A stretch of DNA of 64,000 nucleotides from a virus (Duplodnaviria; Heunggongvirae; Uroviricota; Caudoviricetes), in the IMG/VR virus record IMGVR_UViG_3300035492_000044, positions 46,179 to 110,178 of that record; one strand, 5' to 3'. The notes under the pieces were generated by a model, which saw only the letters and a program-made list of their open reading frames with translations, was not told the DNA's origin and ran no database searches. This document shows, piece after piece, positions 4,743 through 61,299 of this stretch; the first letter of the stretch is position 1, and the number at the start of each line of letters is the position of its first letter. The position numbers and the translations under genes were made by a program.

Positions 4743-4750
4743 TTTGATTA

Positions 4751-4796: not shown

Positions 4797-4845
4797 GGGC
4801 GCTTACAGACGTCTAAAGCCAGTTAGGTTGGAAGGGGAATTCCCC
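4797..4845 (+). promoter_or_regulatory. Class-A conserved motif GGGCGCTTA-N9-AAAGCCAGTTARGGTGGAAG + GC hairpin (GGGGAATTCCCC)
   Basis: One of 9 near-identical copies: 4797, 16567, 22254, 28440, 32177, 57580, 61978, 62336, 63742. All on + strand, 25-60 nt upstream of a start codon. Confidence 0.6.
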
Positions 4846-4885
4846 AAATCAAAGCCAGTAAAAGGAAATGATCTTGAAAAATAAC

Positions 4886-5038
4886 ATGGTTCCGTTTGAT
4901 GCATCTTCGGTTGAATTCCTTATCACCAGCTACGACCCATTCGCTGGTGTATTCAACTGCGTTGACTCGGAGTTCAATGAATTCCGGGTATTCAAATGCA
5001 AGACTACTGGTAACCTGTTTATGGAGAAGTCGGTATGA
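4886..5038 (+). CDS. small hypothetical protein (50 aa)
   Basis: ORF found by eye below the track's size cutoff; lies between class-A motif 4797 and the next gene; ATGA overlap with the following ORF. Confidence 0.3.
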   Translation: MVPFDASSVEFLITSYDPFAGVFNCVDSEFNEFRVFKCKTTGNLFMEKSV

Positions 5039-5196
5039 AATTCAAATCTGGTCAGTCTTTCAAATATAAGGACAGGTACTTCGAAGTACTTGAACTGAAC
5101 ACTAATGAAGGGGCCTACATTTGCCTGGACGACCAGGAGGTTGTAGTTACCTTCCTAGTGACTGACGAGTCCGAGATGGAATTAGTGGAAGACTAA
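5035..5196 (+). CDS. small hypothetical protein (53 aa)
   Basis: ORF found by eye; translationally coupled to the upstream small ORF. Confidence 0.3.
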   Translation: MKFKSGQSFKYKDRYFEVLELNTNEGAYICLDDQEVVVTFLVTDESEMELVED

Positions 5197-5198
5197 AA

Positions 5199-5243
5199 CG
5201 ACGTTTTCTCATGTCGAAACCCTGTTAGGGGGAACGGTTCCCT
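5199..5243 (+). promoter_or_regulatory. Class-B conserved motif CGACGTTT-N7-10-TCGAAACCCTGTTAGGGTGGAAG + hairpin
   Basis: One of ~16 copies: 31, 5199, 8954, 9112, 12165, 17377, 26218, 33032, 34478, 35896, 36155, 36319, 41503, 43638, 47890, 52466. Some are degenerate. Confidence 0.6.
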
Positions 5244-5270
5244 TCCCTCTAACGTGATTGCGAGGACACT

Positions 5271-7268
5271 ATGTCGGCAGACATTAAGATTACAAAGTTG
5301 GTGTACCCGGAGACTATCCGCCAGAACGTGGGTATGTATCTGGGCGAGACTAAGGACTACACCACTCCGCTTCGTGAGATTATCAACAACTCCGAAGACG
5401 AAATCCTGAATAACCACGCCACTTGGATGCTGGTAGTCAACAAAGACAACGCCAAGATGGTCGTGGATAATGGCCGTGGTCTTCCAATCTACGAAGATCC
5501 TGACCATCCTGGTCGAGTGATTGCTCACTCCACCTTCACCGATGTCCACTCTGGTTCCAAGTTCGATAACCCGGATGAGGTTACTTCTGGTATCCACGGT
5601 GTAGGATCGTCGGCAGTAAACGCAGTAAGTGCACGCTACTGTGTGGCTGTCAACCTGAAGAAGAAAGATCTCAGCAAGACGACAGCAGCAATTCGTGCTG
5701 AAGTTGAGAACGAGAAGCTGAATAACCCCATCCTCTACATCGAGTACCAGAAGGGTCTGCTAGTGGCAGATCAAGTGCTGGATGGTGTCGAGTCTCTGAA
5801 GAATGTCTGGGGAGAAGATGTCCCTGAAGACTTTAGTACCGCAGTATTCATGGTACCGGACACCGATATCTACCAGTCCGGTCGAGCTAAGGTCTCGATG
5901 CTTCCGATTCAAATCATCCTGCAGGATAAGCCCAATGTGCGGATTACGGTGGACGGAGTAGAGGCTGAGCCCTACGACTTCGCTAAGTCCCTGGGTGATG
6001 AGGTAGCTCTATTCGAAGAAACTACTCTCAACTTCGAATACGAGCACAACTCCAGGCTGAAGATCAAAGGTGTGTTTGGTTTCGATACCAACACTATGAA
6101 CTACAACCACACCAGCTTGATTAACCTGATCGAGAACCCAGAAGGTGGTCTGATTGAGCGGGTAGTAACCCGAGCTCTTGGTGAATCCTTCAAGAAGCTG
6201 CATAGTGCACTTACCCCTTCGGATATCCGCATGGGGTTCAACCTGTTCACATCCAGCTTCAGCTCGTACAAGAAGAGCTTCGGATCTCAGACTAAGGAGA
6301 AACTGGTCAGCCTAGGTCTGCCAATGCACGAGGCATTGAGTAAGCTGAAGCTGCAGGGTCTGGAGGAGACTCCTGAGAATCTCTCGATTTACACCGTGAG
6401 TGAGGGGGAGATTCGTGATGGCCTGATCAAGTTCTTCGACAAGTTCATTAGCAAGAACAAGGCATTCTTCGAACTGCTAGCTGCTCGAGTAATTGAGTAT
6501 AAGCGTCAGATGAACCGCCTGTCTAGCATGGACTTCGTCAAGTCCAAGGTAATCATGGGCGATGAGAGTGACCGTAAGCGCTCTAATATCGCAGATGCTG
6601 CTAAGGTCTACGAGGCATCCTCGAGTGACTGGAAGCGACGTGAGCTCTACCTAACCGAGGGTCTCTCAGCATCAGGTGGCTTGATTAAGTTCCGTGATAA
6701 ACAACTTCAGTCCATTCTCCCACTTCGTGGTAAGATCCTGAACTGCTCTACCATGGAAGATGTTGACCTGGTGTCTAATGGTGAACTGCTGGCGGTGATT
6801 AACACCGTAGGTTGTGGTCTCGGAGAACTGGCCGATATCACCAAGTCCCGTTACGGCAAGATCATCATCGCAACAGACTCCGACTCGGACGGTAGCCATA
6901 TCGCCAACCTGATCCTTGCGATCTTCCTGATTCACGCCAGACCTCTGGTTGAAGCAGGTATGGTGTACAAGCTGACTCCTCCTTACTACCACGTGAAGAC
7001 AGGTAAGGAAGAGGCTTACTACAGCCACGCTGAACGTGACCTGATCGATTTCAATAAGTCGACGGTAACTAAGCGTAAGGGTCTTGGATCCTACAGCCCG
7101 GATGAAGTGAAAAAGTTCATGGTTAATCCGAGTACTCGCTGCCTTACCCAGATTACTCTGGATTCGGTGGATGAAGACACTCTGAAGCAAGCGATCTCCC
7201 TGCTCTACTCTAGCGCAGCACGTAAGAAGCTGATGATCGAAACTGGCGTACTGCGAGACGAGGAATAA
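5271..7268 (+). CDS. Type II DNA topoisomerase large subunit (GHKL ATPase + TOPRIM; T4 gp39/gp60-like)
   Basis: 'DNGRGLPI', 'IHGVGSSAVNAVS', TOPRIM 'YLTEGLSASG', 'IIIATDSDSDGSHI'. Confidence 0.9.
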   Translation: MSADIKITKLVYPETIRQNVGMYLGETKDYTTPLREIINNSEDEILNNHATWMLVVNKDNAKMVVDNGRGLPIYEDPDHPGRVIAHSTFTDVHSGSKFDNPDEVTSGIHGVGSSAVNAVSARYCVAVNLKKKDLSKTTAAIRAEVENEKLNNPILYIEYQKGLLVADQVLDGVESLKNVWGEDVPEDFSTAVFMVPDTDIYQSGRAKVSMLPIQIILQDKPNVRITVDGVEAEPYDFAKSLGDEVALFEETTLNFEYEHNSRLKIKGVFGFDTNTMNYNHTSLINLIENPEGGLIERVVTRALGESFKKLHSALTPSDIRMGFNLFTSSFSSYKKSFGSQTKEKLVSLGLPMHEALSKLKLQGLEETPENLSIYTVSEGEIRDGLIKFFDKFISKNKAFFELLAARVIEYKRQMNRLSSMDFVKSKVIMGDESDRKRSNIADAAKVYEASSSDWKRRELYLTEGLSASGGLIKFRDKQLQSILPLRGKILNCSTMEDVDLVSNGELLAVINTVGCGLGELADITKSRYGKIIIATDSDSDGSHIANLILAIFLIHARPLVEAGMVYKLTPPYYHVKTGKEEAYYSHAERDLIDFNKSTVTKRKGLGSYSPDEVKKFMVNPSTRCLTQITLDSVDEDTLKQAISLLYSSAARKKLMIETGVLRDEE

Positions 7269-7271
7269 GAA

Positions 7272-8519
7272 ATGACTGAAGCAATTCAAATCTCTGCTGA
7301 CAAGTTCCTGGTTGATAACTATCAGGACTACGGCAGTTACATCAACTTCAACCGAGTAATTCCTGGAGTTGATGGTCTCAAGCCATCGCTGCGTCGTATC
7401 CTGATGGCTCTTCATAAGGTAGCTGGTGGCTCACTTACCAGCACGGTGAATGCCATCGGTGCTACTCAGGTCTACCACCCATTCGGTGACATGTCCATCT
7501 TCAACACGATGACGGATATGGCCCGAGTTGGTGCAGTAGATAGCTTCGGTGACTTCGGAATCAAGCTGATCGAATCGGTCGATGCCTCTGCTCCTCGTTA
7601 TACCAAGGTAGGTCTGTCCAAGTCCCAAGACGACTACTACTTCAAGCTGCTGAACTACACTCCGCAGGTTGAAGGTGAAGAAACTATGGAGCCTGAGTTC
7701 CTTCTGGTTCCTGTTCCGTACTCTCTGATCTACGGCACCATGTCCTGGGGTCTGGGTATCAACGTCAGATCTCCGGCCTTCACTTACGACTCCATTGTGG
7801 AAGCGTATCGGTCAGATGACCCCAGCAAGCTAGTCCCTCAGTATGGCTATAAGATCAATCGTAGCCAGAGTGACCTAGAGGAACTCTGGAATAGAGGTAC
7901 TGGACGAGTAGCTCTGGGGTATAAGGTAGAGCGACTTGATTCGGACACCGTCCTTATGATTGGCTCTGGTGAGGTGTTTACTCCCAAGCTAGCTGCCTTC
8001 GGTAAATGGACTGAAGAGGGTCAGATCAAGGTAACTAACGAGTCCGACGAGAAGGTGATCATCCGGATTACCAGAATCAAGGGTGCTCGTAAGGTCAATA
8101 TGGACGAGGTCTACGAGACTGCAGTTCGAATTGGTACCAACATCCGACGCTACGATATCCGGATCGTACACGAGGGTAAGATTATCCGCCTCGGTATGAA
8201 GGACTGGCTGGATGTGACGATGACTCTGTTCAAGCAGAAGTACGAACAGTTCAAGTCAGATCGAGTTGCTAAGCTGGAAGAGGAGATCCGTGTACTGGAG
8301 ATCCTACCAGAAGTAGGTAAGCTGATTCTGGCTGGTAAGAGTAATGAGGAAATCGCTGATGCTGTCAAGGCTTCTGCCGAGGATGTAGCCAAGTGTATGA
8401 AGAAGCCTGTAGGCATGCTTCGTAAGGGTGAATTCACTGCAGAGATCAAGTCCAATGAAGACAAGATCAAGGCTATCAAAGCAGAGTCTGCCGAAGACCT
8501 GATTACCAAGGGCATGTAA
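7272..8519 (+). CDS. Type II DNA topoisomerase DNA breakage-reunion subunit (T4 gp52 / GyrA-like)
   Basis: 'GLKPSLRRILMAL' and the active-site region 'APRYTKVGLSKS'. Confidence 0.85.
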   Translation: MTEAIQISADKFLVDNYQDYGSYINFNRVIPGVDGLKPSLRRILMALHKVAGGSLTSTVNAIGATQVYHPFGDMSIFNTMTDMARVGAVDSFGDFGIKLIESVDASAPRYTKVGLSKSQDDYYFKLLNYTPQVEGEETMEPEFLLVPVPYSLIYGTMSWGLGINVRSPAFTYDSIVEAYRSDDPSKLVPQYGYKINRSQSDLEELWNRGTGRVALGYKVERLDSDTVLMIGSGEVFTPKLAAFGKWTEEGQIKVTNESDEKVIIRITRIKGARKVNMDEVYETAVRIGTNIRRYDIRIVHEGKIIRLGMKDWLDVTMTLFKQKYEQFKSDRVAKLEEEIRVLEILPEVGKLILAGKSNEEIADAVKASAEDVAKCMKKPVGMLRKGEFTAEIKSNEDKIKAIKAESAEDLITKGM

Positions 8520-8525
8520 TAAGTA

Positions 8526-8558
8526 GGGTGGGTGAAATATCCCACCCTATATTATTTT
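8526..8558 (+). terminator. rho-independent terminator (GGGTGGG..CCCACCC + TATATTATTTT)
   Basis: Hairpin + T-run after the topoisomerase genes. Confidence 0.65.
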
Positions 8559-8569
8559 GTAGGTGGCTC

Positions 8570-8938
8570 ATGATTGCATATCATTTCTCCCATCATGTGT
8601 TTAATCGTCCGGACTATGCCCAGATTCGAGCTAATCGAACTAACCATGAGAATGGCGCTCTAGGTCTATGGGTGGCGATGGAAGACACATGGGCCAGAGG
8701 CTTCGGAGAGAATAAGTATACTATCTGTTTTGATGATAGTCAAGCTTATCAGTTACCTGTCCATAAATTATCTCTAATGAGATTTGACGAGGAGCAGTTC
8801 TCGCAGATGAGAGATAATCTTATGGAGAAGGGGTATAAAGTAATTCACATAGTTGAGTCTAGTGGATCAATTGATATGATGGTCATTATGGACTTTGATT
8901 GTATCATTGATATCAAACATCAGAAAATAACTTCGTGA
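8570..8938 (+). CDS. hypothetical protein
   Basis: ORF; start moved to the ATG after RBS 'aggtgg' because the track start lies inside the terminator hairpin. Confidence 0.4.
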   Translation: MIAYHFSHHVFNRPDYAQIRANRTNHENGALGLWVAMEDTWARGFGENKYTICFDDSQAYQLPVHKLSLMRFDEEQFSQMRDNLMEKGYKVIHIVESSGSIDMMVIMDFDCIIDIKHQKITS

Positions 8939-9172
8939 AAAGTACAATCAGACCGACGTTTTAATCGCTCGAAACCCTGTTGGGGTGGAGGGCGGGTAGT
9001 AGGCCCAAGTGCTCTAGGATGCTCAGGCATCCTAGCCTACTTAATACACTACCACTATCAGGAGAGGAAAATAGAGGATATACATGAAGAGTGCACTTAT
9101 GAAAAATAGTACGACGTTCATGTACCTCGAAACCCTGTTAGGGTGGATTCCCCAATCACTAGGACCCAATAA

Positions 9173-10174
9173 ATGAACAATCTGGATTTACGTGCAGTAG
9201 TATTGCCAAAGGCAATCATCGAGAAATTCCTGAGCATCGAGAAAGAAGTACTCGAGTCTGGCAATCTGGCATGGTCAGTCTACGACAAGAACTGGTGGAA
9301 TGATGGTGGCATCTTCCGTATCCCAGTATCCAGCAATTGCACTGGTCAACTACTGGTAGCTATGTACCACATAGCTAAGCACGGTATCAAAGCTCTAGTC
9401 TACCCGAAGAATACCTTCGAGGGAATCAAGACTACTTATCGTATGCTTCATGCATTCGGTATTCAGACATACCAAGTGGATATGGGTCTCAATAACACCA
9501 ATATCCCATCTGCGGAAGATATCCGTGAACTCACTGGCCATTTTATCGATGACGTGCTTCTGGTAGCTACCAACATTGGTGGCATGAAGTTCGACTACGA
9601 TACCAGCGATTACCTCCATGTAATGCTGGATGGTGCACATGCCCAGTTCCTGGAATATGAAGAAGACGAGAACTACGACTCGGTAGTATACAGCTTCTTC
9701 GCTACTAAGTCTACTCCGGTGGGAGAAGGTGGTCTCATCGCTACTCGTGATGAAGAAATGGCTGACTGGCTCATCCAGACCCTTATGTACGACAAGCCTC
9801 ACTTCAAGGCTCTAGGTCTGAACTTCCGTGTATCTACGGCCACCGCTCTGAAGATGCGTTACCTCCTAACTAGTGGGGAGTCTACCAGTACTCTTCTCGA
9901 GCACAGAGTTGATATTTGGCAGATGTATGCCAAAGTATGTACTGAACTTGGAGTGAGCTTTGTCAATCCTCGTTCTGGTACCATGAACGGGTATAAGTTC
10001 ATGATTACCGATCCTCGGATCACTGACATGGAATGCCTGACTACCAGTAAGGCATTCGAACTGTACCACAACGTCTGCCCGGCTACTTATCCTCAACTGT
10101 CTGAGCAACTGCCAGAACTGGAAAGAGTATTCCGCAGTATCATCACCAAGAATCTGGAGAAAGCTTCAGCATGA
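9173..10174 (+). CDS. DegT/DnrJ/EryC1-like PLP sugar aminotransferase (short form)
   Basis: 'SFFATKSTPVGEGGLIATRDEEMADWL' resembles the DegT 'SFHxxKxxxxGEGG' lysine region. Preceded by two class-B motifs. Confidence 0.5.
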   Translation: MNNLDLRAVVLPKAIIEKFLSIEKEVLESGNLAWSVYDKNWWNDGGIFRIPVSSNCTGQLLVAMYHIAKHGIKALVYPKNTFEGIKTTYRMLHAFGIQTYQVDMGLNNTNIPSAEDIRELTGHFIDDVLLVATNIGGMKFDYDTSDYLHVMLDGAHAQFLEYEEDENYDSVVYSFFATKSTPVGEGGLIATRDEEMADWLIQTLMYDKPHFKALGLNFRVSTATALKMRYLLTSGESTSTLLEHRVDIWQMYAKVCTELGVSFVNPRSGTMNGYKFMITDPRITDMECLTTSKAFELYHNVCPATYPQLSEQLPELERVFRSIITKNLEKASA

Positions 10175-34470: not shown

Positions 34471-34556
34471 CTCCAAACGACGTTCAGATAAGTCGAAACC
34501 CTGTTAGTGTGTAAGTCCCGAAACTCTGTTCTCAACTAAATAAAGGAAATAGCTTC

Positions 34557-35885
34557 ATGCTCGTATCTATCGCTATTGGCGTAGTTATCGCTCTGCTGGC
34601 TCTGGCAGTTATCGTTGCATTCATGTTCCGTCGTGTAGTACCGACTAACATGGTGCATATCGTGCAGTCCTCCAAGAAGACTACGGCCTATGGTCGGGGT
34701 AAAGATGACGGCAACACCTACTATGAATGGCCGAGCTTCCTGCCATTCATCGGTGTCAATGTCACTACCTTCCCTGAGTCGATCTTCCAGGTGAACCTGT
34801 CCGACTATGAAGCCTATGATTCGGCACGTCTGCCATTCATGGTTGATGTTGGTGCATTCTTCCGTGTCGATGACGCTAGCACTGCAGCTCAGCGTGTATC
34901 CTCCTTCGGTGAACTGCAACAGCAACTGGTATCGGTACTGCAGGGTGCAGTTCGTCGTATCCTGGCTACTAACTCTCTGGAAGAGATTATGCAGGAGCGT
35001 AGCAGCTTCGGCGTACAATTCACCAATGAGGTGAAGGATCAAATCAAAGAGTGGGGTGTTCTGCCTGTCAAGACTATCGAGTTCATGGACATCCGTGACT
35101 CCAAGGGTTCTCAGGTGATTCAGAACATCATGGCTAAGGAGAAGTCTCGTATCGAGATGGAATCCCGTGTCCAGGTAGCTGAGAACATGCAGAATGCTCA
35201 GCTGAAAGAGATCGATGCTCAGCGTACTGTTGACGTTCAGCAACAGGATGCACTGCAGCAGGTAGGTATCCGTACTGCTGAGAAAGACAAGATCGTTGGT
35301 ATTGCTAAAGAGCAATCTCAGCAGGAGATCAAGGCTCAGGCCAAGATTACCACTGAGCGTTCGATGGAAGTTACCAAGGTCGAACAAGTCCGTCATGCAG
35401 AAATCGCACGTGATGTGGCTGTAGTTCATGCTGAACAGCAGGCCAAGGTAGCTGTAGTGGCAGCTGATGCTGACAAGCAGACTACCATCGTCCGTGCTGA
35501 CGGTCAGCTGGAAGCTGCTAAGCGTGAAGCTGAGGGTATCAAGGTCAATGGTCTGGCAGCAGCTGAAGCTGAGAAGGCCATGCTCATGGCACCGGTCGAT
35601 ACCCAGATTACTCTGGCGAAAGAGATCGGTGAGAATCAGGGTTATCAGCAGTACCTGATCACCATCGAGCAAGTCAAGGCCAATCAGTTCGTAGGTATCG
35701 AGATGGCGAAAGCTCTCGGCCAGTCGGATCTGAAGATCATCGCCAACTCCGGCGATATCGGTGGTGGTGTGAAGAACTTGGTAGATCTGCTGTCTCCTCA
35801 GGGCGGTACTGCTATTGGCGGTATGCTGGAAGCTCTGAAGAACACTGATGCTGGTAAGGCTCTGCTGTCGAAAGTCGGTCAGTAA
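34557..35885 (+). CDS. SPFH/Band-7 (flotillin/YqiK-like) membrane protein
   Basis: N-terminal TM 'IAIGVVIALLALAVIVAF', PHB domain, long Q/A/E-rich coiled-coil, Gly-rich C-terminus. Confidence 0.75.
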   Translation: MLVSIAIGVVIALLALAVIVAFMFRRVVPTNMVHIVQSSKKTTAYGRGKDDGNTYYEWPSFLPFIGVNVTTFPESIFQVNLSDYEAYDSARLPFMVDVGAFFRVDDASTAAQRVSSFGELQQQLVSVLQGAVRRILATNSLEEIMQERSSFGVQFTNEVKDQIKEWGVLPVKTIEFMDIRDSKGSQVIQNIMAKEKSRIEMESRVQVAENMQNAQLKEIDAQRTVDVQQQDALQQVGIRTAEKDKIVGIAKEQSQQEIKAQAKITTERSMEVTKVEQVRHAEIARDVAVVHAEQQAKVAVVAADADKQTTIVRADGQLEAAKREAEGIKVNGLAAAEAEKAMLMAPVDTQITLAKEIGENQGYQQYLITIEQVKANQFVGIEMAKALGQSDLKIIANSGDIGGGVKNLVDLLSPQGGTAIGGMLEALKNTDAGKALLSKVGQ

Positions 35886-35895
35886 GACTCCAGAA

Positions 35896-35934
35896 CGACG
35901 TTTTCATAAGTCGAAAACCTGTTAGGTTGGAAGT
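35896..35934 (+). promoter_or_regulatory. Class-B motif copy at the entrance of the tRNA island
   Basis: 'CGACGTTTTCATAAGTCGAAAACCTGTTAGGTTGGAAG'; further copies at 36155 and 36319 precede tRNAs. Confidence 0.6.
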
Positions 35935-36059: not shown

Positions 36060-36144
36060 CCGGGTATGGTGAAATCGGTAGACACAAGAGCCTTAAACCC
36101 TCTGGACTATTGTCATGCCAGTTCGAGTCTGGCTACCCGGACCA
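36060..36144 (+). tRNA. tRNA-Leu (anticodon TAA), type II
   Basis: Acceptor CCGGGTA/TACCCGG, long variable arm, T-arm GCCAG-TTCGAGT-CTGGC, encoded CCA. Confidence 0.75.
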
Positions 36145-36359
36145 TATTTCTAAACGACGTTTTACTACGTCGAAACCCTGTTAGGGTGGAAGACGAGTGT
36201 ATTTGAGAAGGCTGGCCAGAATAGCTTCTGGTAGGGTGAACTCTCTGGAGACCGATGACGCCATGCTTCGGTAGCGCATGAAGATGATCCGTCAGTCCTT
36301 CTCCAATACAATCTAGACCGACGTCCAAATAAATCGAAACCCTGTTAGGTTGGAAGTGC

Positions 36360-36438
36360 GATTAAAAGGACCCTAGGCTAACCTCAGTAGGTCTCCCCCA
36401 GATGCTGAAGCTGGATGTCCTAGGATCCTTTTAATCTC
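36360..36438 (+). repeat. Long imperfect inverted repeat (~17 bp arms, ATTAAAAGGACCCTAGG / CCTAGGATCCTTTTAAT) forming an ~80 nt stem-loop
   Basis: Lies directly between class-B motif 36319 and tRNA-Arg. Confidence 0.5.
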
Positions 36439-36443
36439 ATTTC

Positions 36444-36520
36444 GCGTCCATAGCTCATCTGGATAGAGCAGGGGATTTCTAATCCCCTGGTGGTAGGTTC
36501 GAGTCCTACTGGACGCGCCA
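36444..36520 (+). tRNA. tRNA-Arg (anticodon TCT)
   Basis: Acceptor GCGTCCA/TGGACGC, anticodon loop TTTCTAA in stem GGGGA/TCCCC, GGTTCGAGTCC T-arm, CCA. Confidence 0.8.
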
Positions 36521-36969
36521 TATACCCGGCACTTACTGATGTCGTAGCTCGATAAACTCTAGTATCATTAGTTAGGATCGAAACCTCTACTAATGCTCTA
36601 TTAGATAAGGTTGGGTCAGTGGAGCAGTAGCCCTTACGTGGAGTGGGTATGTGTCAGAAGAGGCACTCCGCTCGATAACTGTCACGTGTGAATAATGAAT
36701 ACTATGCAGCTAGTTTTATTATTCTGGGTTTAGATGTCATGCTGCTACTCATGCATTATTTCTCCTGTTGGAGAGTGCAGGCGGAGAGGAGGCATCCTCG
36801 TAGAAGCCGAGTAGAGTCGACCACGGTCTAGCGGTGGAGGCAGTGCCCGTACTGTCATTTAGAATGATATCCTTCGGCTGTAAGGATGACGGGTAATAGA
36901 GCAAGCGGTGAGTACTAACTGCCTGCAGGACTTTGATGTGGTGTCAGAGTCCTGTGGAGTAAGTATTCT

Positions 36970-37046
36970 GCGGAATTAGCTCAGTTGGATAGAGCATCTG
37001 CCTTCCAAGCAGAGGGTCACGAGTTCGAGTCTCGTATTCCGCTCCA
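36970..37046 (+). tRNA. tRNA-Gly (anticodon TCC)
   Basis: Acceptor GCGGAAT/ATTCCGC, loop CTTCCAA, U73, CCA. Confidence 0.8.
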
Positions 37047-37050
37047 TTAT

Positions 37051-37127
37051 TGGGGTATAGCACAGTTGGTAGTTGCGTCTGACTGTTAATCAGAATGTCG
37101 TAGGTTCGAGCCCTACTACCCCAGCCA
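37051..37127 (+). tRNA. tRNA-Asn (anticodon GTT)
   Basis: Acceptor TGGGGTA/TACCCCA, loop CTGTTAA, GGTTCGAGCCC T-arm, CCA. Confidence 0.7.
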
Positions 37128-37371
37128 AATTTGGTGTTACTCCCGATCGAAAGATACTGAAACATGAAATCGTCTCCGCACGATGTAGGCCTTACGAGGT
37201 CATGATCAGCCAAGAGATGACAGGTCCGAGTAGATTAGTAGCACCGTCTTAATCACGCAGAGGCGGACTGCATCGAGAGCCATTAGAAAAGTGTAACTCC
37301 ACGAGAACCTCAGACTCTGGACTACATGACCGGCACTAGCTTCACTCGATCTAATAATTAAACGCAACCAT

Positions 37372-37456
37372 GCGGATGTGGTGAAATTGGTAGACACACC
37401 TGGTTTAGGTCCAGACGCCTACGGGCGTGAGAGTTCGAATCTCTCCATCCGCACCA
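37372..37456 (+). tRNA. tRNA-Leu (anticodon TAG), type II
   Basis: Acceptor GCGGATG/CATCCGC, long variable arm, loop TTTAGGT, CCA. Confidence 0.65.
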
Positions 37457-37711
37457 TATTCGAGACCCCACTAGTCAGCCGAAGTACTGGTGGAGATTAG
37501 TGTCATGAGCTAGTCTGCCCAGGTCTCGAATCAAAACAGGAGAGTCCTTAGATGGTGCTATCTAGCCAGTTGCATTCGTAGTCTACCCGTCGGCTACATT
37601 GAATGCCTAAGTGACTCTCCGCCTATTATGGGGTATGCCTCGTCTAAAGCATTGGGATCTGTGATGATACCAGGGTGGGTAACTACGTAGTCCCACATAC
37701 TCCACCAGTTT

Positions 37712-37787
37712 GCCGGTATAGCTCAGCTGGTAGAGCAGCTGACTTGTAATCAGCAGGTCGTGAGTTCGAATCCCACTGCCGGCACCA
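37712..37787 (+). tRNA. tRNA-Thr (anticodon TGT)
   Basis: Acceptor GCCGGTA/TGCCGGC, stem GCTGA/TCAGC with loop CTTGTAA, CCA. Confidence 0.8.
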
Positions 37788-37799
37788 TATTGTGGTTAC

Positions 37800-37916
37800 T
37801 GGTTCCTATCATTATGTGGTTGGAAGCAAAAAGTCTAGTAATCACAACCTAATTGCTGTAATCCCTCTTGAAGTGAAACATGATGGACGGGAGTTCGACT
37901 CTCCCCAGCTCCACCA
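37800..37916 (+). ncRNA. ssrA: tmRNA acceptor piece (3' half of a permuted ssrA): T-arm + 3' acceptor strand + CCA
   Basis: 'GGACGGGAGTTCGACTCTCCCCAGCTCCACCA' ends 37916 and closely matches the E. coli tmRNA 3' end '..GGGTTCAACTCCC.CCAGCTCCACCA'. No matching 5' acceptor strand upstream. Left boundary is approximate. Confidence 0.65.
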
Positions 37917-37986
37917 TAGTTACCCTGGTAGTGACAGCCTTTGAGTGCGGTCTTAATCTACCATGGCTATCAGAGTAACTATGATG

Positions 37987-38240
37987 GGGCTGATCTGGAT
38001 TCGACATTGTGCGTAGTGAATAGAGGCAGCACAGGTAGATGACTGCCTGAAGTTGAGCCACCTTGCGGAAGGTCTGGGCTCAGCTGAAATAGCATAAATC
38101 AAGTAACTGCCAACGATGAATCGTTCGCACCTCTGGCTCTGGTTGCTTAAGTAACCTGATGCTGGTCGGGTATCTTCGGATCGCTCTCCTGCTATAGCTA
38201 ATACCTATAGTTGCCTCGGAACAGAAAGAGAGCACCTATT
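37987..38240 (+). ncRNA. ssrA: tmRNA coding piece (5' acceptor strand GGGGCTGATCTGGATTCGAC..., tag ORF ANDESFAPLALVA-stop)
   Basis: 'GGGGCTGATCTGGATTCGAC' at 37987 matches the tmRNA 5' end 'GGGGCUGAUUCUGGAUUCGAC'. Tag frame 'GCC AAC GAT GAA TCG TTC GCA CCT CTG GCT CTG GTT GCT TAA' at 38109-38150. Lies downstream of the CCA end, so the gene is circularly permuted. 3' boundary approximate. Confidence 0.7.
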
Positions 38241-38257
38241 TCATTAGTGAGGACTAA

Positions 38258-38467
38258 ATGGAACATCACATCCTTAATCTCACTGCCCAGAAGGGTCGCC
38301 TGTATTACTACCAGGGTAATTTCTACCATCCGCTTGATCTGGTAGGTAACTCGGTAGGTCTAGTGAAGAGAGGAATTCGAGAGTTCCTCGCTAAGAATAA
38401 AGATATGGTAGCTCGTGACAGAGCTAGCCCAGACTACAAGACTCTGGTTGAATTATCAGGTCTTTAA
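38258..38467 (+). CDS. hypothetical small protein
   Basis: ORF within the tRNA island. Confidence 0.3.
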   Translation: MEHHILNLTAQKGRLYYYQGNFYHPLDLVGNSVGLVKRGIREFLAKNKDMVARDRASPDYKTLVELSGL

Positions 38468-38570
38468 CTAATCCTGTCGTTGGGACTACCCAGTAGCCAT
38501 GAACTTCTGGGCGTCAGTAGAAGATACTGGACCAGTACGAAACCTGGTAATAATTAATTAGGAGAGCAGC

Positions 38571-38774
38571 ATGATGCTATCTGAGTTGGGTCAACGTATC
38601 TTGGCCCACTATGTTGAAAGACGTAGCGGTAAGTCGGGTAACTACATCCCTACTGACTGTGATCGTAAAGCAGCTCAACTAGCTGCTGAGAATACCACGG
38701 ATCATCTACGTGGAGCTACTGTTATGGCTCGGATGTATGATGACAAGCTTGCTGGTAAGGCTCCTATTAAGTAG
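38571..38774 (+). CDS. hypothetical small protein
   Basis: ORF with RBS 'ggagag'. Confidence 0.3.
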   Translation: MMLSELGQRILAHYVERRSGKSGNYIPTDCDRKAAQLAAENTTDHLRGATVMARMYDDKLAGKAPIK

Positions 38775-38917
38775 GAGCCGACTCGTACTTTCTGATGAGT
38801 AGCCCGAGTATAAAAGGCACGAAACTGTAATAGTCAAAGAGCCACTGATGGTGGCCAGTTAGTAACTCACACTGTAGCTAACTGAATTACGTTTGCAGAG
38901 GACCGTCAATCTGAAGC

Positions 38918-39625
38918 ATGAAGTGTACGCCTATGGTACTGACACTACCTTGGAAGTTGTACTGTGCTGGCGCTATACCAGCACTTAATACAGTGCAGCC
39001 TACAATCTATTCTTGCCTCGAACTGGATGAGTCCACAGAGGATGCGCACTTGAGTAGATTGTGGGAAGTACTGGAGATAATCATGACCAGAGAAGATTTA
39101 ATAAATCTATCCAAGATACCTCCTTCAAATATATCAGTAGCAAAGTCTCTTGAAGCTAGAGGTTATCCATATTATGGTAACCTAAAATCTTCATATCCGA
39201 TTCATTGGGCCAGCTTCTCTGCTATGCACGGAAGAGTTAGAGATTTTGGCCTTGATTGTGATTTTCCTAGAAATGTGGATGGATTTATTGATTTTATCCT
39301 TTATGTCGGACCTGTTCCTGGAGATATGATTAGGCCAACTCTTGGTAGATCAGATCATTCAATTGGGTACTTAAAGGGTAATTTTAAGTGGCAGGAGTCC
39401 AGTGATAATACATCGGAGTCTGCTACAAGAAACAAGACTGTAGTCAAGATTCAAGAGTGTCGTTTAAATAGGTTGGAAGACCTAGTAAGTAGTCTAGGGG
39501 ATAAAGTTGAAATAGACTCCTTATTTACGACCTCTCACTTTAGATATAAGAAGGATTTGTACAGGCTACTTAGAAGTAGGGGATATAAAATATCTTCTGA
39601 CTATAAAGTAGCTAGTAAAGTTTAA
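38918..39625 (+). CDS. HNH homing endonuclease (paralog 1)
   Basis: 'LGRSDHSIGYLKGNFKWQ' resembles the HNH 'RIDNxxGYxxxNxRW' motif; AT-rich codon usage differs from the neighbours; embedded between tRNAs. Confidence 0.5.
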   Translation: MKCTPMVLTLPWKLYCAGAIPALNTVQPTIYSCLELDESTEDAHLSRLWEVLEIIMTREDLINLSKIPPSNISVAKSLEARGYPYYGNLKSSYPIHWASFSAMHGRVRDFGLDCDFPRNVDGFIDFILYVGPVPGDMIRPTLGRSDHSIGYLKGNFKWQESSDNTSESATRNKTVVKIQECRLNRLEDLVSSLGDKVEIDSLFTTSHFRYKKDLYRLLRSRGYKISSDYKVASKV

Positions 39626-39626
39626 T

Positions 39627-39716
39627 GGAGAGTTGGCCGAGTGGTTTAAGGCACCTGACTTGAAATCAGACGGATCAGCAATGGTCCCCAGGGTTCGAAT
39701 CCCTGGCTCTCCACCA
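39627..39716 (+). tRNA. tRNA-Ser (anticodon TGA), type II
   Basis: Acceptor GGAGAG../..CTCTCC, long variable arm, loop CTTGAAA, GGTTCGAATCC T-arm, CCA. Confidence 0.7.
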
Positions 39717-40045
39717 TATTGACCTAAGAAGATTACACTCATCATGGGTGGGATTAGCCTCTTATCTTCTTGGTCAATATTCTCTGTTACTCACAAGTAC
39801 CTTAACTAACAACTGCACAGACGTTAGCCAACCAGATGTGAGTAATCGAGGTTCCACTCTCATTCCGAGAGTGTTGATAAGGGGGTGATCCTTATCTCCG
39901 GCTGCAGCTACGGATACTGCAGAAAGGCTAGTTAATGTCGTGAGACATCGACAGGCCTACCGTTGTACCAGAGGCGAATAGGGTAGCTCCCGTTCCAGCA
40001 CTGCTTTGCTGGATAGCCTCTTCTTATACCTAAGCAGAGGTTAGT

Positions 40046-40585
40046 ATGAACATACCTGAAATAAAATATGATACCGAGTACCTAATAAAAATAGCTTTCC
40101 ATAATTTTGATTTATGGAGCCATCACGAGCAAATGGCCGTTAAGTCTATGGAAGCTAGAGGTATTCCATGTTATGGTTTATTACCTAAAATGTTTCCGAT
40201 TCATCGGAACCGTTTTAGAAATATGCATAATAGAATAGACGAACAGTGTTTAGAGACTTCGTTTAAAAGAGATTTAGAAGGTTTTGCTAAATTTGTGGAA
40301 TATCTTGGACCAGTTCCTACTGAAATGAAAGTCCCGTCTTTAGGAAGAATCGATCATTCTAAAGGTTATGTAATAGGCAACTTTACATGGCAGGAACTTA
40401 GAGATAATATAGAAGAAATGGCCAATAGAACCAAGTCTTCAGATAATAAGTTCTGGGTAAACAGCCCAGGATGCACAGGTTATAGATGGTATAACGACGG
40501 ACAGACTGAATTCTTTCTGAGAGAAAATAATCCTTTAATTGAAGACGCTGGTCTAGTTAGAGGTCGGTTTTCTAATCGACGTTAA
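40046..40585 (+). CDS. HNH homing endonuclease (paralog 2)
   Basis: 'SLGRIDHSKGYVIGNFTWQ' HNH motif; clear paralogy to 38918-39625 ('EARGIPCYG', 'LGPVPTEMKVPSLGR'). Confidence 0.55.
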   Translation: MNIPEIKYDTEYLIKIAFHNFDLWSHHEQMAVKSMEARGIPCYGLLPKMFPIHRNRFRNMHNRIDEQCLETSFKRDLEGFAKFVEYLGPVPTEMKVPSLGRIDHSKGYVIGNFTWQELRDNIEEMANRTKSSDNKFWVNSPGCTGYRWYNDGQTEFFLRENNPLIEDAGLVRGRFSNRR

Positions 40586-40638
40586 TCCATCAGAAGCCAC
40601 TAATGCTGTGGAAAACTCTGCAAAAATTTAGGTGACTT

Positions 40639-40932
40639 ATGAATAAGGTAGTTAGATTCCTTAATGCCATTCGTAGGTCACACCCAGATATGGTCGAGTT
40701 GTATACTCAGGGCCAATGCTACAACTTCCATCTTATCCTCCGAGAGGTCTTCCCAGATGCTGTTGCCTGGTATGACCCAGTTGAGGGCCATGTGTACTCC
40801 AAGATTGGAGACTGCTGGTACGATATAAGAGGAAGACATTTCAAACTGGATCCACGAGCTAGTATTCTGGATCATCGTATGTCCGACAAACCTCATCGCT
40901 GGGGTGGACGTGATAGAAGAAGACTAAGGTGA
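40639..40932 (+). CDS. hypothetical protein
   Basis: ORF. Confidence 0.4.
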   Translation: MNKVVRFLNAIRRSHPDMVELYTQGQCYNFHLILREVFPDAVAWYDPVEGHVYSKIGDCWYDIRGRHFKLDPRASILDHRMSDKPHRWGGRDRRRLR

Positions 40933-40935
40933 GTT

Positions 40936-41502
40936 ATGGCTCGTAAATCATTCAAGGACATGACCCAGTTTCAAGTAGGCCAGCACTTCTGTGAATGTGA
41001 TCTAGGCCAGGTACTCGAGTTCGCTATCACTACCGAACCTGTAGTTAAGGACGTGGATGGTCGACGCCAGATTACCTGGACAGGTCGTGACGTGAAGACT
41101 CAGCGGGATATTGAGTATCTCGTTACTGAGGGCTTCGAACATTATGGCCCTAAGATCTACGACCCAGCTGACATGTTCAGCCCAGAGGATGTAGCTCTTG
41201 CTCTCCGACAGTTGCGCCAGTCTCCTAATGTCCTTCAGAAGGTCGAGGTAGATCCTGGTGCACCTGGTGGTGATGAGACGGTAGTTAGCTGTATAGTTCC
41301 TATTAATGGAAAAGATCATCACCTAGTCCTACCGGTTACATTGCATTATCGTGGTATCTGCAGACTGGCTGGATATAATGACGACAGACTGTACACCATT
41401 ACCTACGTCTCTCAGCAAGGTAGTGGTATAGTCGGGCCTAATGACTCTCTCCAGATTACAGCTGGTACAAAGATAAATGTGGCATTGACCAACAATGCAT
41501 AA
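40936..41502 (+). CDS. hypothetical protein
   Basis: ORF. Confidence 0.4.
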   Translation: MARKSFKDMTQFQVGQHFCECDLGQVLEFAITTEPVVKDVDGRRQITWTGRDVKTQRDIEYLVTEGFEHYGPKIYDPADMFSPEDVALALRQLRQSPNVLQKVEVDPGAPGGDETVVSCIVPINGKDHHLVLPVTLHYRGICRLAGYNDDRLYTITYVSQQGSGIVGPNDSLQITAGTKINVALTNNA

Positions 41503-41546
41503 CGACTTCCAGATAGTCCGAAACCCTGTTAGGGTGGAAGTCGGAA

Positions 41547-41888
41547 ATGGAGAGAGTTATGCTTGGTAAACCCATGAAGTCGATTAAGGTTCAATATGAG
41601 CCTGGCTGGAATGGTGGAACTTGGTCTGTAGTCAGTCGGAAGATTGATGCAGTATCTAAAGTCCACGATCTTCCTATGGATGTCAAGGTCAAGATACGGG
41701 GTATCCTAATCGACGCCTGTAAATCTACTCGAAAGGGTACTGACTATGACATGGGCCATCAGTACGACTGGGAATCCTGGGACCTGACTCTTAAGGTCAA
41801 GACTGAACTGGGTGTAATGGAGTTCAGTTTCTATGAGTATGCCCAGAAGCATCCTCGAGTCAAGACCTGGGAGATCTTCTACGAATAA
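41547..41888 (+). CDS. hypothetical protein
   Basis: ORF after class-B motif 41503. Confidence 0.4.
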   Translation: MERVMLGKPMKSIKVQYEPGWNGGTWSVVSRKIDAVSKVHDLPMDVKVKIRGILIDACKSTRKGTDYDMGHQYDWESWDLTLKVKTELGVMEFSFYEYAQKHPRVKTWEIFYE

Positions 41889-41966
41889 GGGCCTCTAGCA
41901 TAACTGGTAAATGCGTCCGGCTCATAACCGGAGGACAGATCGGTTCGAATCCGACGGGGCCCACCA
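41889..41966 (+). tRNA. tRNA-Met/Ile2 (anticodon CAT)
   Basis: Acceptor GGGCCTC/GGGGCCC, stem TCCGG/CCGGA with loop CTCATAA, GGTTCGAATCC T-arm, CCA. G1-C72 pair means it is not an initiator. Confidence 0.75.
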
Positions 41967-58239: not shown

Positions 58240-59694
58240 ATGCGTCCTGTACTTAAGATCAAACTTATGTCAGACAGCAATATTAAGTCTGTCAGTTCTG
58301 GGGAAATTGAGTCCTACCGTCTGTACAACTTCAAGTACAAGACACCTCGCCCAGTACCGGGTGGTCTATTCTGCGAGAAGATCTTTGGTCCTATCCAGGA
58401 TTACACCTGTGCCTGCGGTATCCGTCACTCTATTGCCTTGAAAGTATGCGAGACCTGCGGTGTGCCTATTCTTAGTGCACGTGAACGCCGTAATCGTATG
58501 GGGCATATCAATTGTCGCCTCCCCTACCTAAATCCAATTGCCTCTGACCTAGTCGGCGGTATCTTCGGAGTTAGTGGTAAGGCTCTCCTCGATGTGGCAG
58601 TAGGTACCTCGCGGTACTACATAGAGGAGGCAGCTGGTTCAGGTCCATTGATCAGTTCGAGCGGTGTGCGTTATCGCATTCAAATCGTAGGTAAGGAAGA
58701 TCCTGAGTGGGAGAACTCCGATTACTCGATTTACTCGCTTCTCTCTGACCTGATTGACCTGGACATTAGTGGTGAGGAGACACTCTCCAAGCACAAAAAT
58801 CCTGATGTTCGTCGGTATTATGAAAACGGGTTCACTTCGGTCCTGAATTTCTTCAATACCTCAGTTCTTGTTCCGCCACCTCTCCACCGAGATATCTCCA
58901 TCTCGAATGGTGAGATTTCGTATCACCCCACTAATATCCTCTACCTTCGACTCATTCGAGTAGCTCATCGATTCCAGGTTATTATGGAATCGGAGAACGA
59001 GGATATGTTGGTTCTACTCCGTGAAGAAGCTCGAGTTCTCCAGCATCTGGTGAATTCAGTTTACACTGAAGGAGCTAAGGACCATCGCGGTAACGCTATC
59101 CCAGCCATTATGGACAAACTGGGAGGTAAAGAGGGTCTGTTTCGTGGTAATATGCTAGGCAAGCGTATTGACTACTCCGGACGTTCCTCGATTACTACAG
59201 GTCCCGATCTCCCGATTGATACCTGCGCTGTACCGTTCAAAATGATGTACACTCTGCTTGAACCCCATATCCTCGGAAGGCTAGTTACTCTGGCAGAAGA
59301 GCGATTCAATGGGGAGGCTAATCCGTACACTGTGGCTTCTCGTTGGTATAAGAGGCAGACCACTGAGGCGGTTGAAGCCTGCTATGACCTTGCCAAGGAG
59401 GCTATTGTAATCCTTAACCGAGCTCCATCGCTCCATCGCTATTCGGTAATGGGATTTAAGGTAGTTCTTCACTCTGGTAAGAGTATCCGGATACCTCCGC
59501 TAATCTGCTCCCCATTCAACGCAGACCATGATGGCGACACCATGGCGATTCACCTGCCGTTGTCTAAGCAGGCACTAGCTGAGTTCCCTCTGTATTCGGT
59601 TCAGCATAATCTGATGAGTTCTATCGATTATGACACCCCGAATATGTCTCCGTCCCACGAGGCTGTAGTGGGTCTGTACCAGCTCACCCTGTGA
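58240..59694 (+). CDS. Multisubunit RNA polymerase beta' subunit, N-terminal half
   Basis: Zn-binding 'DYTCACGIRHS..CETCGV', 'ARERRNRMGHINCRLPYLNPI' (vs 'RRERMGHIELASPTAHIW'), catalytic 'NADHDGDTMAIHLPLS' (vs 'NADFDGDQMAVHVPLT'). Confidence 0.9.
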   Translation: MRPVLKIKLMSDSNIKSVSSGEIESYRLYNFKYKTPRPVPGGLFCEKIFGPIQDYTCACGIRHSIALKVCETCGVPILSARERRNRMGHINCRLPYLNPIASDLVGGIFGVSGKALLDVAVGTSRYYIEEAAGSGPLISSSGVRYRIQIVGKEDPEWENSDYSIYSLLSDLIDLDISGEETLSKHKNPDVRRYYENGFTSVLNFFNTSVLVPPPLHRDISISNGEISYHPTNILYLRLIRVAHRFQVIMESENEDMLVLLREEARVLQHLVNSVYTEGAKDHRGNAIPAIMDKLGGKEGLFRGNMLGKRIDYSGRSSITTGPDLPIDTCAVPFKMMYTLLEPHILGRLVTLAEERFNGEANPYTVASRWYKRQTTEAVEACYDLAKEAIVILNRAPSLHRYSVMGFKVVLHSGKSIRIPPLICSPFNADHDGDTMAIHLPLSKQALAEFPLYSVQHNLMSSIDYDTPNMSPSHEAVVGLYQLTL

Positions 59695-59775: not shown

Positions 59776-61299
59776 ATGCTGGTAAATAACGTTCATTATT
59801 TCAACAATCCTCAAGCAATTCACGAAGCGTATGAGAACGGGTTGATTACTTACCATACCGAGGTTAAGTATAAGTTCCGGGACACTACTGAGTGGGTTGA
59901 CATTACTTATGGGCGATTCCTGATCTGGGAATTCACTGGGTACCTCCCAGAGGGTGCCCTTAGTAAGAAGGGTGTGAAGAATCTCGTTATCCACATTAAC
60001 CGGGAGTACAGCCCTGAAGTAGCTGTTAAGAAGATGAAACAGCTACAAGATCTGGCTTTCAAGATCGCCACTGAGAAGGGAATTACCCTTGGGATGGACG
60101 ACTTCCACCCAATGCCTGGTACTAACGAGATCATGGCAGAAGAGCAGGTCCGTATCTCGGCTCTTCCTATCGAAGAGCGAGCTGAAGAGTGGGATACCGT
60201 TATTAACGGCCAGGTAGATCGCTGGATTAACGAGGTCGATCGAAATAACCCTCTCTACGCCATGTACCAGTCAGGTGCTCGAGTAACTCCCTCCCAGATA
60301 CGCCAGATGGTTGTTGGTAAGGGTCTTCTCACTAAGATGAACGGTGAGATTAACCCGGATGCAGTTACTCAGTCTCTGGCAACAGGACTTAGTGTGTACA
60401 ATTACTTCATGACATGTGGGCCTGCTCGGAGAGGTCTGGCTAACAACTTCTTCGTAGTTCCTGCCTCTGGATACTTCGCACGGCAGCTGGTTAATGCTGC
60501 GCGTGACCTTACCATCGTAGAAGAGGACTGCGGTACTCGAGAGGGGGTAGAGGTCAAGTCGAAATACGCAGTAGGTCGCTACCTTGCAGGTACATCCGAA
60601 CTCTGGACTAAGGACAGCAAGACTGACATGCCTTACCTCAAGGTGAGGAGTCCTCTTACCTGCTCCTCTGTTCTAGGTGGACTCTGCGCTAAGTGCTGTG
60701 GACAGGATCCTGCCACTAACGAGGATTGGAGAGTAGGTTTCGGTATGGGGACAGCGTCGGCTCAGCATATCTCGGAACCAGCTACTCAGGCCGGTCTACG
60801 TGGTAAGCATACCTCAGGTTCGGTTACTCTGGCGGATTACCGTAACTCGGTTGATAACGTACTTCCGAACATCATCAGGGCTTTCGGTGGTATCGGTACT
60901 CAGTTCGTAACTACTGAGGGAGCTACTTCGAAGACCCTATACGACTTCAGCAAGACTGAGAAGGATCCTATTACTGCAGCTGAGAAGCTCTGCCAGCACA
61001 TTAAGGACCTGTTCGTGGAGGGTGGTCTGGGTGTAGCTAGCATCCACATCGAGGTAATTATTCGCTCCTGTATTGAGCAGGTAATTAAGAAAGATGGTGA
61101 AGTAGGTCTTCGGTCTCATGGAGATGAGGGCCGAATCAAGTGCCTCAACGTGAGTCAGGTTCCTCTTAATTACCCGAGCTGGCTGAAGTCTATCAGCTTC
61201 GGCTACACCTCCAGCCGACTCCGTAAGGCAGTATGCCGGATGGAGAAGACTTACGGCGTAATGACGGAGCAGATTATGACAACTGCGTTCCAACACTAA
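59776..61299 (+). CDS. Multisubunit RNA polymerase beta' subunit, C-terminal half
   Basis: 'VPASGYFARQLVNAARDLTIVEEDCGT' (vs '[26 protein letters not shown]') and trigger-loop 'SEPATQAGLRGKHTSG' (vs 'GEPGTQLTMRTFHIGG'). Confidence 0.85.
   Translation: MLVNNVHYFNNPQAIHEAYENGLITYHTEVKYKFRDTTEWVDITYGRFLIWEFTGYLPEGALSKKGVKNLVIHINREYSPEVAVKKMKQLQDLAFKIATEKGITLGMDDFHPMPGTNEIMAEEQVRISALPIEERAEEWDTVINGQVDRWINEVDRNNPLYAMYQSGARVTPSQIRQMVVGKGLLTKMNGEINPDAVTQSLATGLSVYNYFMTCGPARRGLANNFFVVPASGYFARQLVNAARDLTIVEEDCGTREGVEVKSKYAVGRYLAGTSELWTKDSKTDMPYLKVRSPLTCSSVLGGLCAKCCGQDPATNEDWRVGFGMGTASAQHISEPATQAGLRGKHTSGSVTLADYRNSVDNVLPNIIRAFGGIGTQFVTTEGATSKTLYDFSKTEKDPITAAEKLCQHIKDLFVEGGLGVASIHIEVIIRSCIEQVIKKDGEVGLRSHGDEGRIKCLNVSQVPLNYPSWLKSISFGYTSSRLRKAVCRMEKTYGVMTEQIMTTAFQH

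Follow-up and report, generated by a model that had tools for sequence, protein, structure and literature searches.

Why a large bacteriophage should carry a gene for a flotillin-like membrane protein, what kind of protein this is and what it might do in the infected cell are the questions raised by a locus in the IMG/VR virus record IMGVR_UViG_3300035492_000044 (Caudoviricetes; positions 46,179 to 110,178, a stretch of 64,000 nucleotides hereafter called the window). The gene lies at window positions 34557 to 35885. Its product belongs to the SPFH superfamily and is flotillin-like in architecture but divergent and not a canonical flotillin, and its family is already known in dozens of large phages and some bacteria; the window gene is a new example, not a new kind. 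As to function, the balance tips, although only somewhat, towards an accessory, non-structural gene whose product forms cages that condition the host membrane during infection.

Protein architecture

The gene and the parts of its product are as follows.

34543 to 34547, + strand: Shine-Dalgarno sequence AAGGA, read from the sequence, with the start codon 9 nt further on
34557 to 35885, + strand: coding sequence of the 442-residue flotillin-like SPFH protein, ATG start, stop codon included
34560 to 34628, + strand: N-terminal transmembrane helix, residues 2 to 24, followed by RR (hydropathy and AlphaFold2; N-out/C-in predicted)
34635 to 35114, + strand: SPFH/Band-7 domain, residues about 27 to 186 (Pfam, AlphaFold2, invariant columns, and Foldseek matches to stomatin and flotillin SPFH domains)
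35115 to 35627, + strand: Ala/Gln/Val/Glu-rich helical region of coiled-coil type, residues 187 to 357 (composition and AlphaFold2)
35628 to 35882, + strand: conserved C-terminal region, residues 358 to 442, with a Gly-rich tail at residues 401 to 442 (composition and family alignment)

All four parts read from the translation in the initial annotation, namely a transmembrane helix, a PHB/Band-7 domain, a very long Ala/Gln/Glu coiled coil and a Gly-rich tail, were recovered. Residues 2 to 24 form the sole strongly hydrophobic segment of the protein (Kyte-Doolittle 19-mer mean up to 3.17) and a helix in the AlphaFold2 monomer model, which was built with 45 homologues. The Pfam search proposed as a check on the annotation placed Band_7 (PF01145) at residues 56 to 210 with 53.3 bits (cutoff 23.6, E=4.5e-14), and four further family members scored 51 to 69 bits. 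The start of the SPFH domain is marked in the family alignment by the invariant motif RVVPTNMVH.VQ. Residues 211 to 345 are composed of 19% A, 13% Q, 11% V, 10% E and 9% K, while the C-terminal region carries the family motif ...DLK.IAN.GD...GG...ML.AL. and Gly makes up 21% of the last 42 residues (401 to 442).

The model has a mean predicted local distance difference test (pLDDT) score of 71.9, with values of 80 to 92 across residues 70 to 260. Beyond the N-terminal helix it shows an alpha/beta domain at residues 32 to 181, helices at 187 to 272 and 281 to 357, and shorter C-terminal helices. The two long helices may be a single one, since the break between them has pLDDT below 50. An antisense open reading frame (ORF) of 378 residues (34536 to 35672, - strand) covers most of the gene. 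Shadow ORFs of this kind occur inside the SPFH gene in 39 of 47 homologous loci, and as the conserved sense gene alone produces them, the antisense ORF is not regarded as a gene.

Relation to known SPFH families

Foldseek returned a probability of 1.00 to stomatin, flotillin, HflK/C, QmcA, prohibitin and erlin, with TMt of 0.65 to 0.85 on isolated SPFH domains. The best matches were the flotillin-1/2 complexes 9l3g and 9bq2 (404 to 434 columns, E of 1e-10 to 1e-8). These were the sole SPFH cages in the PDB to match over essentially the full length; the matches to stomatin, HflK/C, QmcA, prohibitin and erlin mostly covered 180 to 310 columns. The wall helix of flotillin-1/2 aligned with the helical region at residues 187 to 357, and the large root-mean-square deviation from both complexes is explained by the monomer model folding its helices back. 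Sequence matches in the PDB were weak and limited to the SPFH core: the family profile found QmcA best (E=1e-8), followed by stomatins (1e-4 to 1e-6) and by flotillin-2 (0.0075, over residues 118 to 347). The order of an SPFH domain, a helix longer than 150 residues and a C-terminal cap, in a protein within the size of the class (about 420 to 550 residues), is nevertheless that of a flotillin.

Membership in the strict sense is another matter. The Pfam Flot domain (PF15975) had no match at E<=1 in the window protein and four relatives, although Escherichia coli YqiK, taken as the positive control, gave 139.8 bits and the YqiJ control was likewise detected by Pfam. The NCBIfam FloT equivalog model scored 28.2 bits against a cutoff of 700, and ten flanking ORFs were scanned with no Pfam match of any kind, to an NfeD/YqiJ-type partner or otherwise. 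Because neither the Flot domain, the FloT model nor such a partner was recovered, the protein is not a canonical flotillin: the initial annotation was right as to a phage-encoded SPFH/Band-7 protein with flotillin-like architecture, and a strict flotillin identity falls away. Remote homology of the C-terminal region to the Flot domain of YqiK was considered and dropped, as hhalign of the two C-termini gave E=0.16, below significance. An HflK/HflC identity does not fit either, the gene being single and the distribution of K and R predicting a cytoplasmic SPFH domain. No PHROG family matched the protein, nor did any PADLOC defence model at E<=0.01. The alternative against which the annotation was to be judged, a tape-measure or tail protein, was ruled out by the replication and tRNA genes that surround the locus, the Band_7 match, the transmembrane anchor and the existence of cellular orthologues.

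Distribution and evolution

That a phage copy is atypical, as first supposed, proved overstated: such copies are rare per genome, but recurrent in large phages, and some are already annotated. A tblastn search found full-length homologues in 51 of 50,697 GenBank phage records, with 47-61% identity, in genomes of 120 to 635 kb from at least five host genera. The carriers comprise 37 T5-like Thalassavirus records from Vibrio harveyi/campbellii, Brevundimonas jumbo phages, Ralstonia phage RP13, Xanthomonas phage X1 and the PhiXhv phages, Erwinia phage Ep032 and one uncultured phage of 635 kb. Several of these homologues are labelled 'flotillin protein' or 'SPFH domain-containing protein', and most, including those of all listed Vibrio phages, 'hypothetical'. 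IMG/VR added 29 loci on contigs of up to 455 kb. In a collection of 5.8 billion proteins there were at least 1954 relatives, the best 120 at 61-72% identity; an exhaustive search of 50%-identity representatives gave 656 clusters at E<=0.001, of which 170 reached E<=1e-30. A scan of genome contigs with a single sequence yielded two loci in metagenome-assembled genomes (MAGs), too few for a taxonomic survey. The identical protein (P0001) is present in public metagenome assemblies, where its Joint Genome Institute name is 'flotillin'.

Eight long contigs were inspected among the close relatives, and five of them (P0003, P0011, P0043, P0101 and P0049) offered phage-like contexts. Their neighbouring genes encode NMNAT-NUDIX, NAMPT, GroES, DNA and RNA ligases, PNKP, IF3, ClpX, ClpP, PhoH, HNH homing endonucleases and 7-deazaguanine functions. 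In the three cellular contexts the gene lies beside IspD/IspF/thioredoxin, amid FliP/FliR/CorA/MCP, or at the edge of a phage-like island in Burkholderia ubonensis. Phage and cellular sequences, at 60-72% identity, are intermingled in a neighbour-joining tree, the clade of the window protein being mixed and the phages falling into at least six clades. All-versus-all BLASTP of the ORFs at 47 phage and cellular loci revealed no conserved neighbour, only shadow ORFs; NMNAT/NAMPT recur near the gene in a few related phages. The latter are the Brevundimonas-type phages and related viral contigs (L009, L014, L018, L021 and L023/L024), in which NMN adenylyltransferase/NUDIX and NAMPT genes lie a few kb from the SPFH gene.

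About a third of the phage loci, from large phages that are not related to one another, have the SPFH gene within or beside tRNA arrays. Clear clusters were seen in 7 of 28 loci scanned (L012, L026, L033, L036, L039, L043 and L051) and in the window, L012 and L026 each having 19 tRNAs within about 5 kb, and in none of the four cellular loci. In three cases (L033, L036 and the window) the gene is also beside a tmRNA. This pattern fits a gene that resides in plastic accessory regions.

Such a setting might be expected of a functionless passenger, that is, a recent capture from bacteria with no role in infection, and the patchy occurrence among related phages points the same way. The idea is nonetheless very unlikely, given that the protein is conserved at full length in 51 phage records and 29 viral contigs, with about 100 invariant positions along the whole family alignment. 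The only frameshifted copy seen is a split ORF in locus L043, and the codon usage of the window gene is fully phage-adapted, indeed more biased than that of its genome.

Plastic regions, often tRNA islands, are also where a gene for superinfection exclusion could lie. Cages that block DNA entry by a secondary phage, or prevent lysis from without, would suit a membrane protein with the early-type expression proposed below, and the B. ubonensis copy, at its island edge, stands beside AAA_21 and VRR_NUC genes. Known exclusion proteins, however, are small and lineage-specific, whereas the SPFH protein is of large size and shows high conservation among unrelated phages; ordinary chromosomal neighbourhoods occur as well, and the PADLOC models are silent. 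A part in competition between phages is accordingly regarded as quite improbable.

The B. ubonensis locus (LPAX01000060.1, positions 1 to 9494; L001-L003) deserves description in its own right. The homologue stands between ordinary genes (D-Ala-D-Ala ligase-like, MFS and MCP) and a phage-like or defence-like island with a Metallophos gene, AAA_21 together with a protein of 280 residues and unknown nature, VRR_NUC and many ORFs with no Pfam match. The Metallophos protein clusters with those of phage contigs L014 and L028. An ATP-grasp gene lies directly 3' of the SPFH gene both here and in Xanthomonas phage X1, which may be coincidence.

Possible transcription signals and codon usage

What this study adds for the window gene is that it is bracketed by copies of a repeated motif, is extreme in codon bias and avoids the codons read by the phage's own tRNAs. 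The motif, of about 40 bp, reads aCGACGTT-N8-TCGAAAnCCTGTTAG(GGTGGAAG) and has 16 copies in the window, all intergenic and on the + strand, where 0.09 would be expected by chance.

4811, 5213, 8968, 9126, 12177, 17391, 26231 and 33046, + strand: starts of the motif core
34492, 35910, 36169, 36333, 41517, 43652, 47904 and 52480, + strand: starts of the motif core, continued
34476 to 34515, + strand: copy upstream of the SPFH gene, the conserved core ending 49 nt before the ATG
35894 to 35933, + strand: copy downstream of the SPFH gene, starting 9 nt past the stop codon
36153 and 36317, + strand: further copies, around tRNA-Leu and tRNA-Arg

Ahead of topoisomerase II, DNA polymerase and a number of further genes the motif stops 30 to 50 nt short of the start codon, and it also flanks tRNA genes. 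At the copies of 12177 and 17391 its 3' part runs into a hairpin and a T-run. A sigma70 promoter scan around the SPFH gene found nothing beyond shuffled expectation, and a terminator scan found none after it; a search for the motif in the other homologous loci and in IMG/VR returned only the same phage in another assembly. The motif is probably a phage-specific promoter or the boundary of a regulatory cassette. With copies on both sides, the SPFH gene appears as a self-contained unit that shares its signal with the replication genes.

The codon usage of the gene is equally distinctive. Its effective number of codons is 34.6, the lowest among 45 ORFs of at least 150 residues, the others ranging from 38.4 to 56.5. 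The codons preferred are those of the phage, applied more strictly (CTG 86% versus 36% in the pooled genes, CGT 95% versus 42%, ATC 79% versus 53%). The codons TTA, AGA, GGA, CTA, ACA and TCA, which phage tRNAs match, are used in none of 124 cases where 19.9 would be expected (P=4e-10), and this disuse suggests abundant translation independent of the phage tRNA supply. The phage tRNAs mostly decode A-ending codons, whose usage is 0% in the SPFH gene and 40-47% in two ORFs (38918 to 39625 and 40046 to 40585), which suggests two translation regimes among the genes of this phage. Both of these ORFs lie inside the tRNA cluster. In RP13, too, the homologue is the most codon-biased of 44 coding sequences sampled. 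A recent transfer, as judged from GC content at third codon positions, was considered and dropped, the gene being inside the range of the window (z=0.8); its high GC content at first positions follows from the Ala, Gly, Glu and Val content of the protein.

The phage and its genome

The window belongs to a large novel phage of lytic type. All of its large ORFs are on the + strand, and PHROG matches identify an SbcC/SbcD-type nuclease and exonuclease, a two-gene T4-type topoisomerase II, both subunits of ribonucleotide reductase, a primase, a helicase, a family-A DNA polymerase, a thymidylate synthase and split RNA polymerase beta subunits. Directly downstream of the SPFH gene lie eight tRNA genes and a permuted tmRNA.

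36060 to 41966, + strand: tRNA genes Leu-UAA, Arg-UCU, Gly-UCC, Leu-UAG, Thr-UGU, Ser-UGA, Asn and Met
37807 to 38241, + strand: permuted (two-piece) tmRNA, Rfam tmRNA_permuted 104 bits, tag peptide ANDESFAPLALVA
58240 to 59694 and 59776 to 61299, + strand: two adjacent genes that match split RNA polymerase beta-subunit families (phrog_25354, 2987 and 3015, of jumbo-type phages)

The phage probably has a multisubunit RNA polymerase of its own, by which the repeated motif could be recognised. The tmRNA also scored 86.6 bits against Rfam beta_tmRNA (gathering threshold 84), and its tag is resembled by that of locus L033 (ANDESFAVAA); the tmRNA type, and also the place that the Burkholderia sequence takes in the tree, point tentatively to a host among the betaproteobacteria. 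The nearest DNA polymerases are phage enzymes, from Acinetobacter phage Ab1-TPeters and Ralstonia phage RP13 (36-39% identity), of which RP13 has the SPFH gene and Ab1-TPeters, the nearest relative by DNA polymerase, lacks it. Megablast of the region against GenBank phages gave tRNA matches only, and no close relative of the phage was found in GenBank phages or IMG/VR.

These surroundings bear on whether the protein could be packaged in, or ejected from, the virion and act at entry or assembly. SPFH proteins of other subfamilies have been detected by mass spectrometry in preparations of Erwinia jumbo phages (RisingSun gp131 and Eneladusvirus), although the RisingSun samples at least were crude preparations. 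The window gene, on the other hand, lies in the replication and tRNA arm and has its motif in common with the DNA polymerase and topoisomerase II genes; its product has a transmembrane anchor, and the cellular orthologues occur in housekeeping contexts. In the T5-like Vibrio phages the gene is likewise in the tRNA region, at a distance from the structural genes, which are listed within the first 50 kb of the genome. A virion role thus has very little probability.

Topology and possible function

The N-terminal hydrophobic segment is kept in 115 of 117 family members; K and R are absent before it, and a median of two follow it. Under the positive-inside rule, such a distribution predicts an N-out/C-in protein with its SPFH domain and helices in the cytoplasm. 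Solved SPFH proteins (flotillin, stomatin, HflK/C, QmcA, prohibitin and erlin) form membrane-anchored rings or domes whose walls are long helices, and such domes enclose a patch of membrane or a client protein.

By analogy, the phage protein may oligomerise through its long helix into a ring or dome. This structure would be attached to the inner membrane of the host from the cytoplasmic side and would enclose a patch of it, and the protein would be produced abundantly alongside the replication genes in early or middle infection. In the most speculative step, these cages might condition the host membrane through a long infection cycle, acting on its integrity, its fluidity, its membrane machines or the energy supply, and the gene would then be comparable to other host-maintenance genes of such phages, such as those for tRNAs, tmRNA, NAD salvage, GroES and ClpP/ClpX. 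The roles proposed earlier, in replication or assembly sites or in host membrane signalling, are speculation.

Several points weigh against a membrane-conditioning cage. Both the cage and the cytoplasmic orientation are predictions, and the monomer model (pLDDT 72) is of low confidence beyond residue 260. The motif is promoter-like only, and the timing class is read from the genes downstream of its copies. The homologue of Vibrio phage Brizo ranks only 13th of 39 in codon bias, so that extreme bias is not universal in the family; a codon-bias maximum as a general family trait was therefore discarded, holding as it does for the window and RP13 and failing for Brizo. No family member was found in a plasmid collection at E<1e-20. 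Supplementation of a host copy is weakened as an idea for the Vibrio phages, as no Vibrio orthologue is among the best 120 hits to the Brizo protein, the named ones being from Arenimonas and Pseudobdellovibrionaceae MAGs; by the same token the phage copies cannot simply have been captured of late from the hosts they now infect. Finally, the literature search yielded no experimental study of any phage SPFH protein. Papers on phages X1 and GIB1, on the Erwinia Eneladusvirus phages and on RisingSun merely mention the gene, and two of them expressly term its role in phages unclear or poorly understood.

The apparent lack of a Vibrio host orthologue argues that the phage brings something new, not more of the same, and this would favour a cage specific for a client. 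Such a cage would sequester one host or phage membrane protein, for example an FtsH-type protease, a holin or a membrane-acting abortive-infection effector. HflK/C encloses FtsH, prohibitin the m-AAA protease, and stomatin acts on channels; all the solved SPFH cages that match the model, erlin included, work in this manner. Co-regulation with replication genes in the early or middle class and high expression, both proposed here from the motif and the codon usage, would also suit a factor for takeover or counter-defence. Yet no candidate client is linked to the gene, the 47 loci have no conserved neighbour and PADLOC gave nothing. The interleaving of phage and cellular copies at 60-72% identity further argues for an interaction surface that is generic, not tailored to phages. 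A dedicated client is therefore judged unlikely, although it deserves to be kept in mind.

A more far-reaching possibility, rather improbable at present, is that a dedicated flotillin-type cage has been domesticated by large phages and passed on among them, and that early in infection it sets up membrane compartments under phage control. These might serve to counter membrane-acting host defences or proteases, to set the timing of lysis or to give a phage process an anchor at the membrane. The five phage-borne contexts among eight, the Vibrio observation, and the gene's own cassette with its tRNA-independent codon optimisation fit such a scheme but do not prove it. If true, it would be a new class of host takeover, beyond the supplementing of a host function.

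For the window itself, conditioning of the host membrane remains the preferred reading, and the gain is mainly an improved annotation. More broadly, the analysis defines one coherent and highly conserved family, limited to large phages and some environmental bacteria. With no PHROG of its own, and called 'hypothetical' in the majority of the listed GenBank phage records, the family represents an annotation gap. Tractable systems exist in the 37 Vibrio phage records (hosts V. harveyi BAA-1116 / V. campbellii BB120), in RP13 and X1 and in the Brevundimonas phages. Should the cages manage membrane integrity or sequester membrane proteins, a layer of membrane organisation would be added to phage host takeover.

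Comparison with known systems

The closest structural counterpart is the flotillin-1/flotillin-2 cage (PDB 9BQ2 and 9L3G), which shares the SPFH domain, the very long wall helix and the C-terminal cap at just 16-18% identity. Flotillins are attached through acylation or a hairpin and assemble as a heteromer of two paralogues, whereas the phage protein has a transmembrane helix and comes from a single gene in which Pfam Flot is undetected.

Among bacterial proteins, E. coli YqiK and Bacillus subtilis FloT have the same order of parts, from an N-terminal anchor through the SPFH domain and a long Ala/Glu/Gln-rich helix to a Gly-rich C-terminus. BLASTP aligned YqiK collinearly at 24-27% identity, the helical region matching YqiK residues 283 to 501 at 27%. 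YqiK, however, has Pfam Flot and the NfeD-like partner YqiJ, neither of which was detected in the phage-protein family. The same applies to SPFH-NfeD pairs at large (YqiJK, QmcA-YbbJ and FloT-YuaF): their partner genes are adjacent, and none was found beside members of this family. The E. coli HflK/HflC-FtsH and QmcA-YbbJ systems resemble the phage protein as bacterial SPFH cages with transmembrane anchors, the cage of the phage protein being a prediction. HflK/C and QmcA are much shorter; HflK/C is a periplasmic heteromer and QmcA has an NfeD partner, features not seen in the phage protein.

Other viral SPFH proteins, from RaK2-like and Erwinia jumbo phages, Rhizobium phage Pasto, Vibrio phage pVa5 and giant viruses, share the SPFH fold. 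They are mostly shorter (about 260-340 residues, stomatin/HflC-like) and belong to other subfamilies, Foldseek aligning no more than their SPFH part and first helix. Members of the same family are found in the Brevundimonas phages Domovoi, Kabachok, Bambus and Marchewka (annotated 'flotillin protein'), in Ralstonia phage RP13 (ORF243), in Xanthomonas phage X1 ('SPFH domain-containing protein') and in the Vibrio Thalassavirus phages (e.g. Brizo gp105). All are of full length at 49-61% identity and are encoded by single genes amid small accessory ORFs. These annotated homologues belong to other phage lineages and occupy other genomic positions, with zero common neighbours; in Brizo the gene is embedded in a tRNA array, as it is in the window phage.

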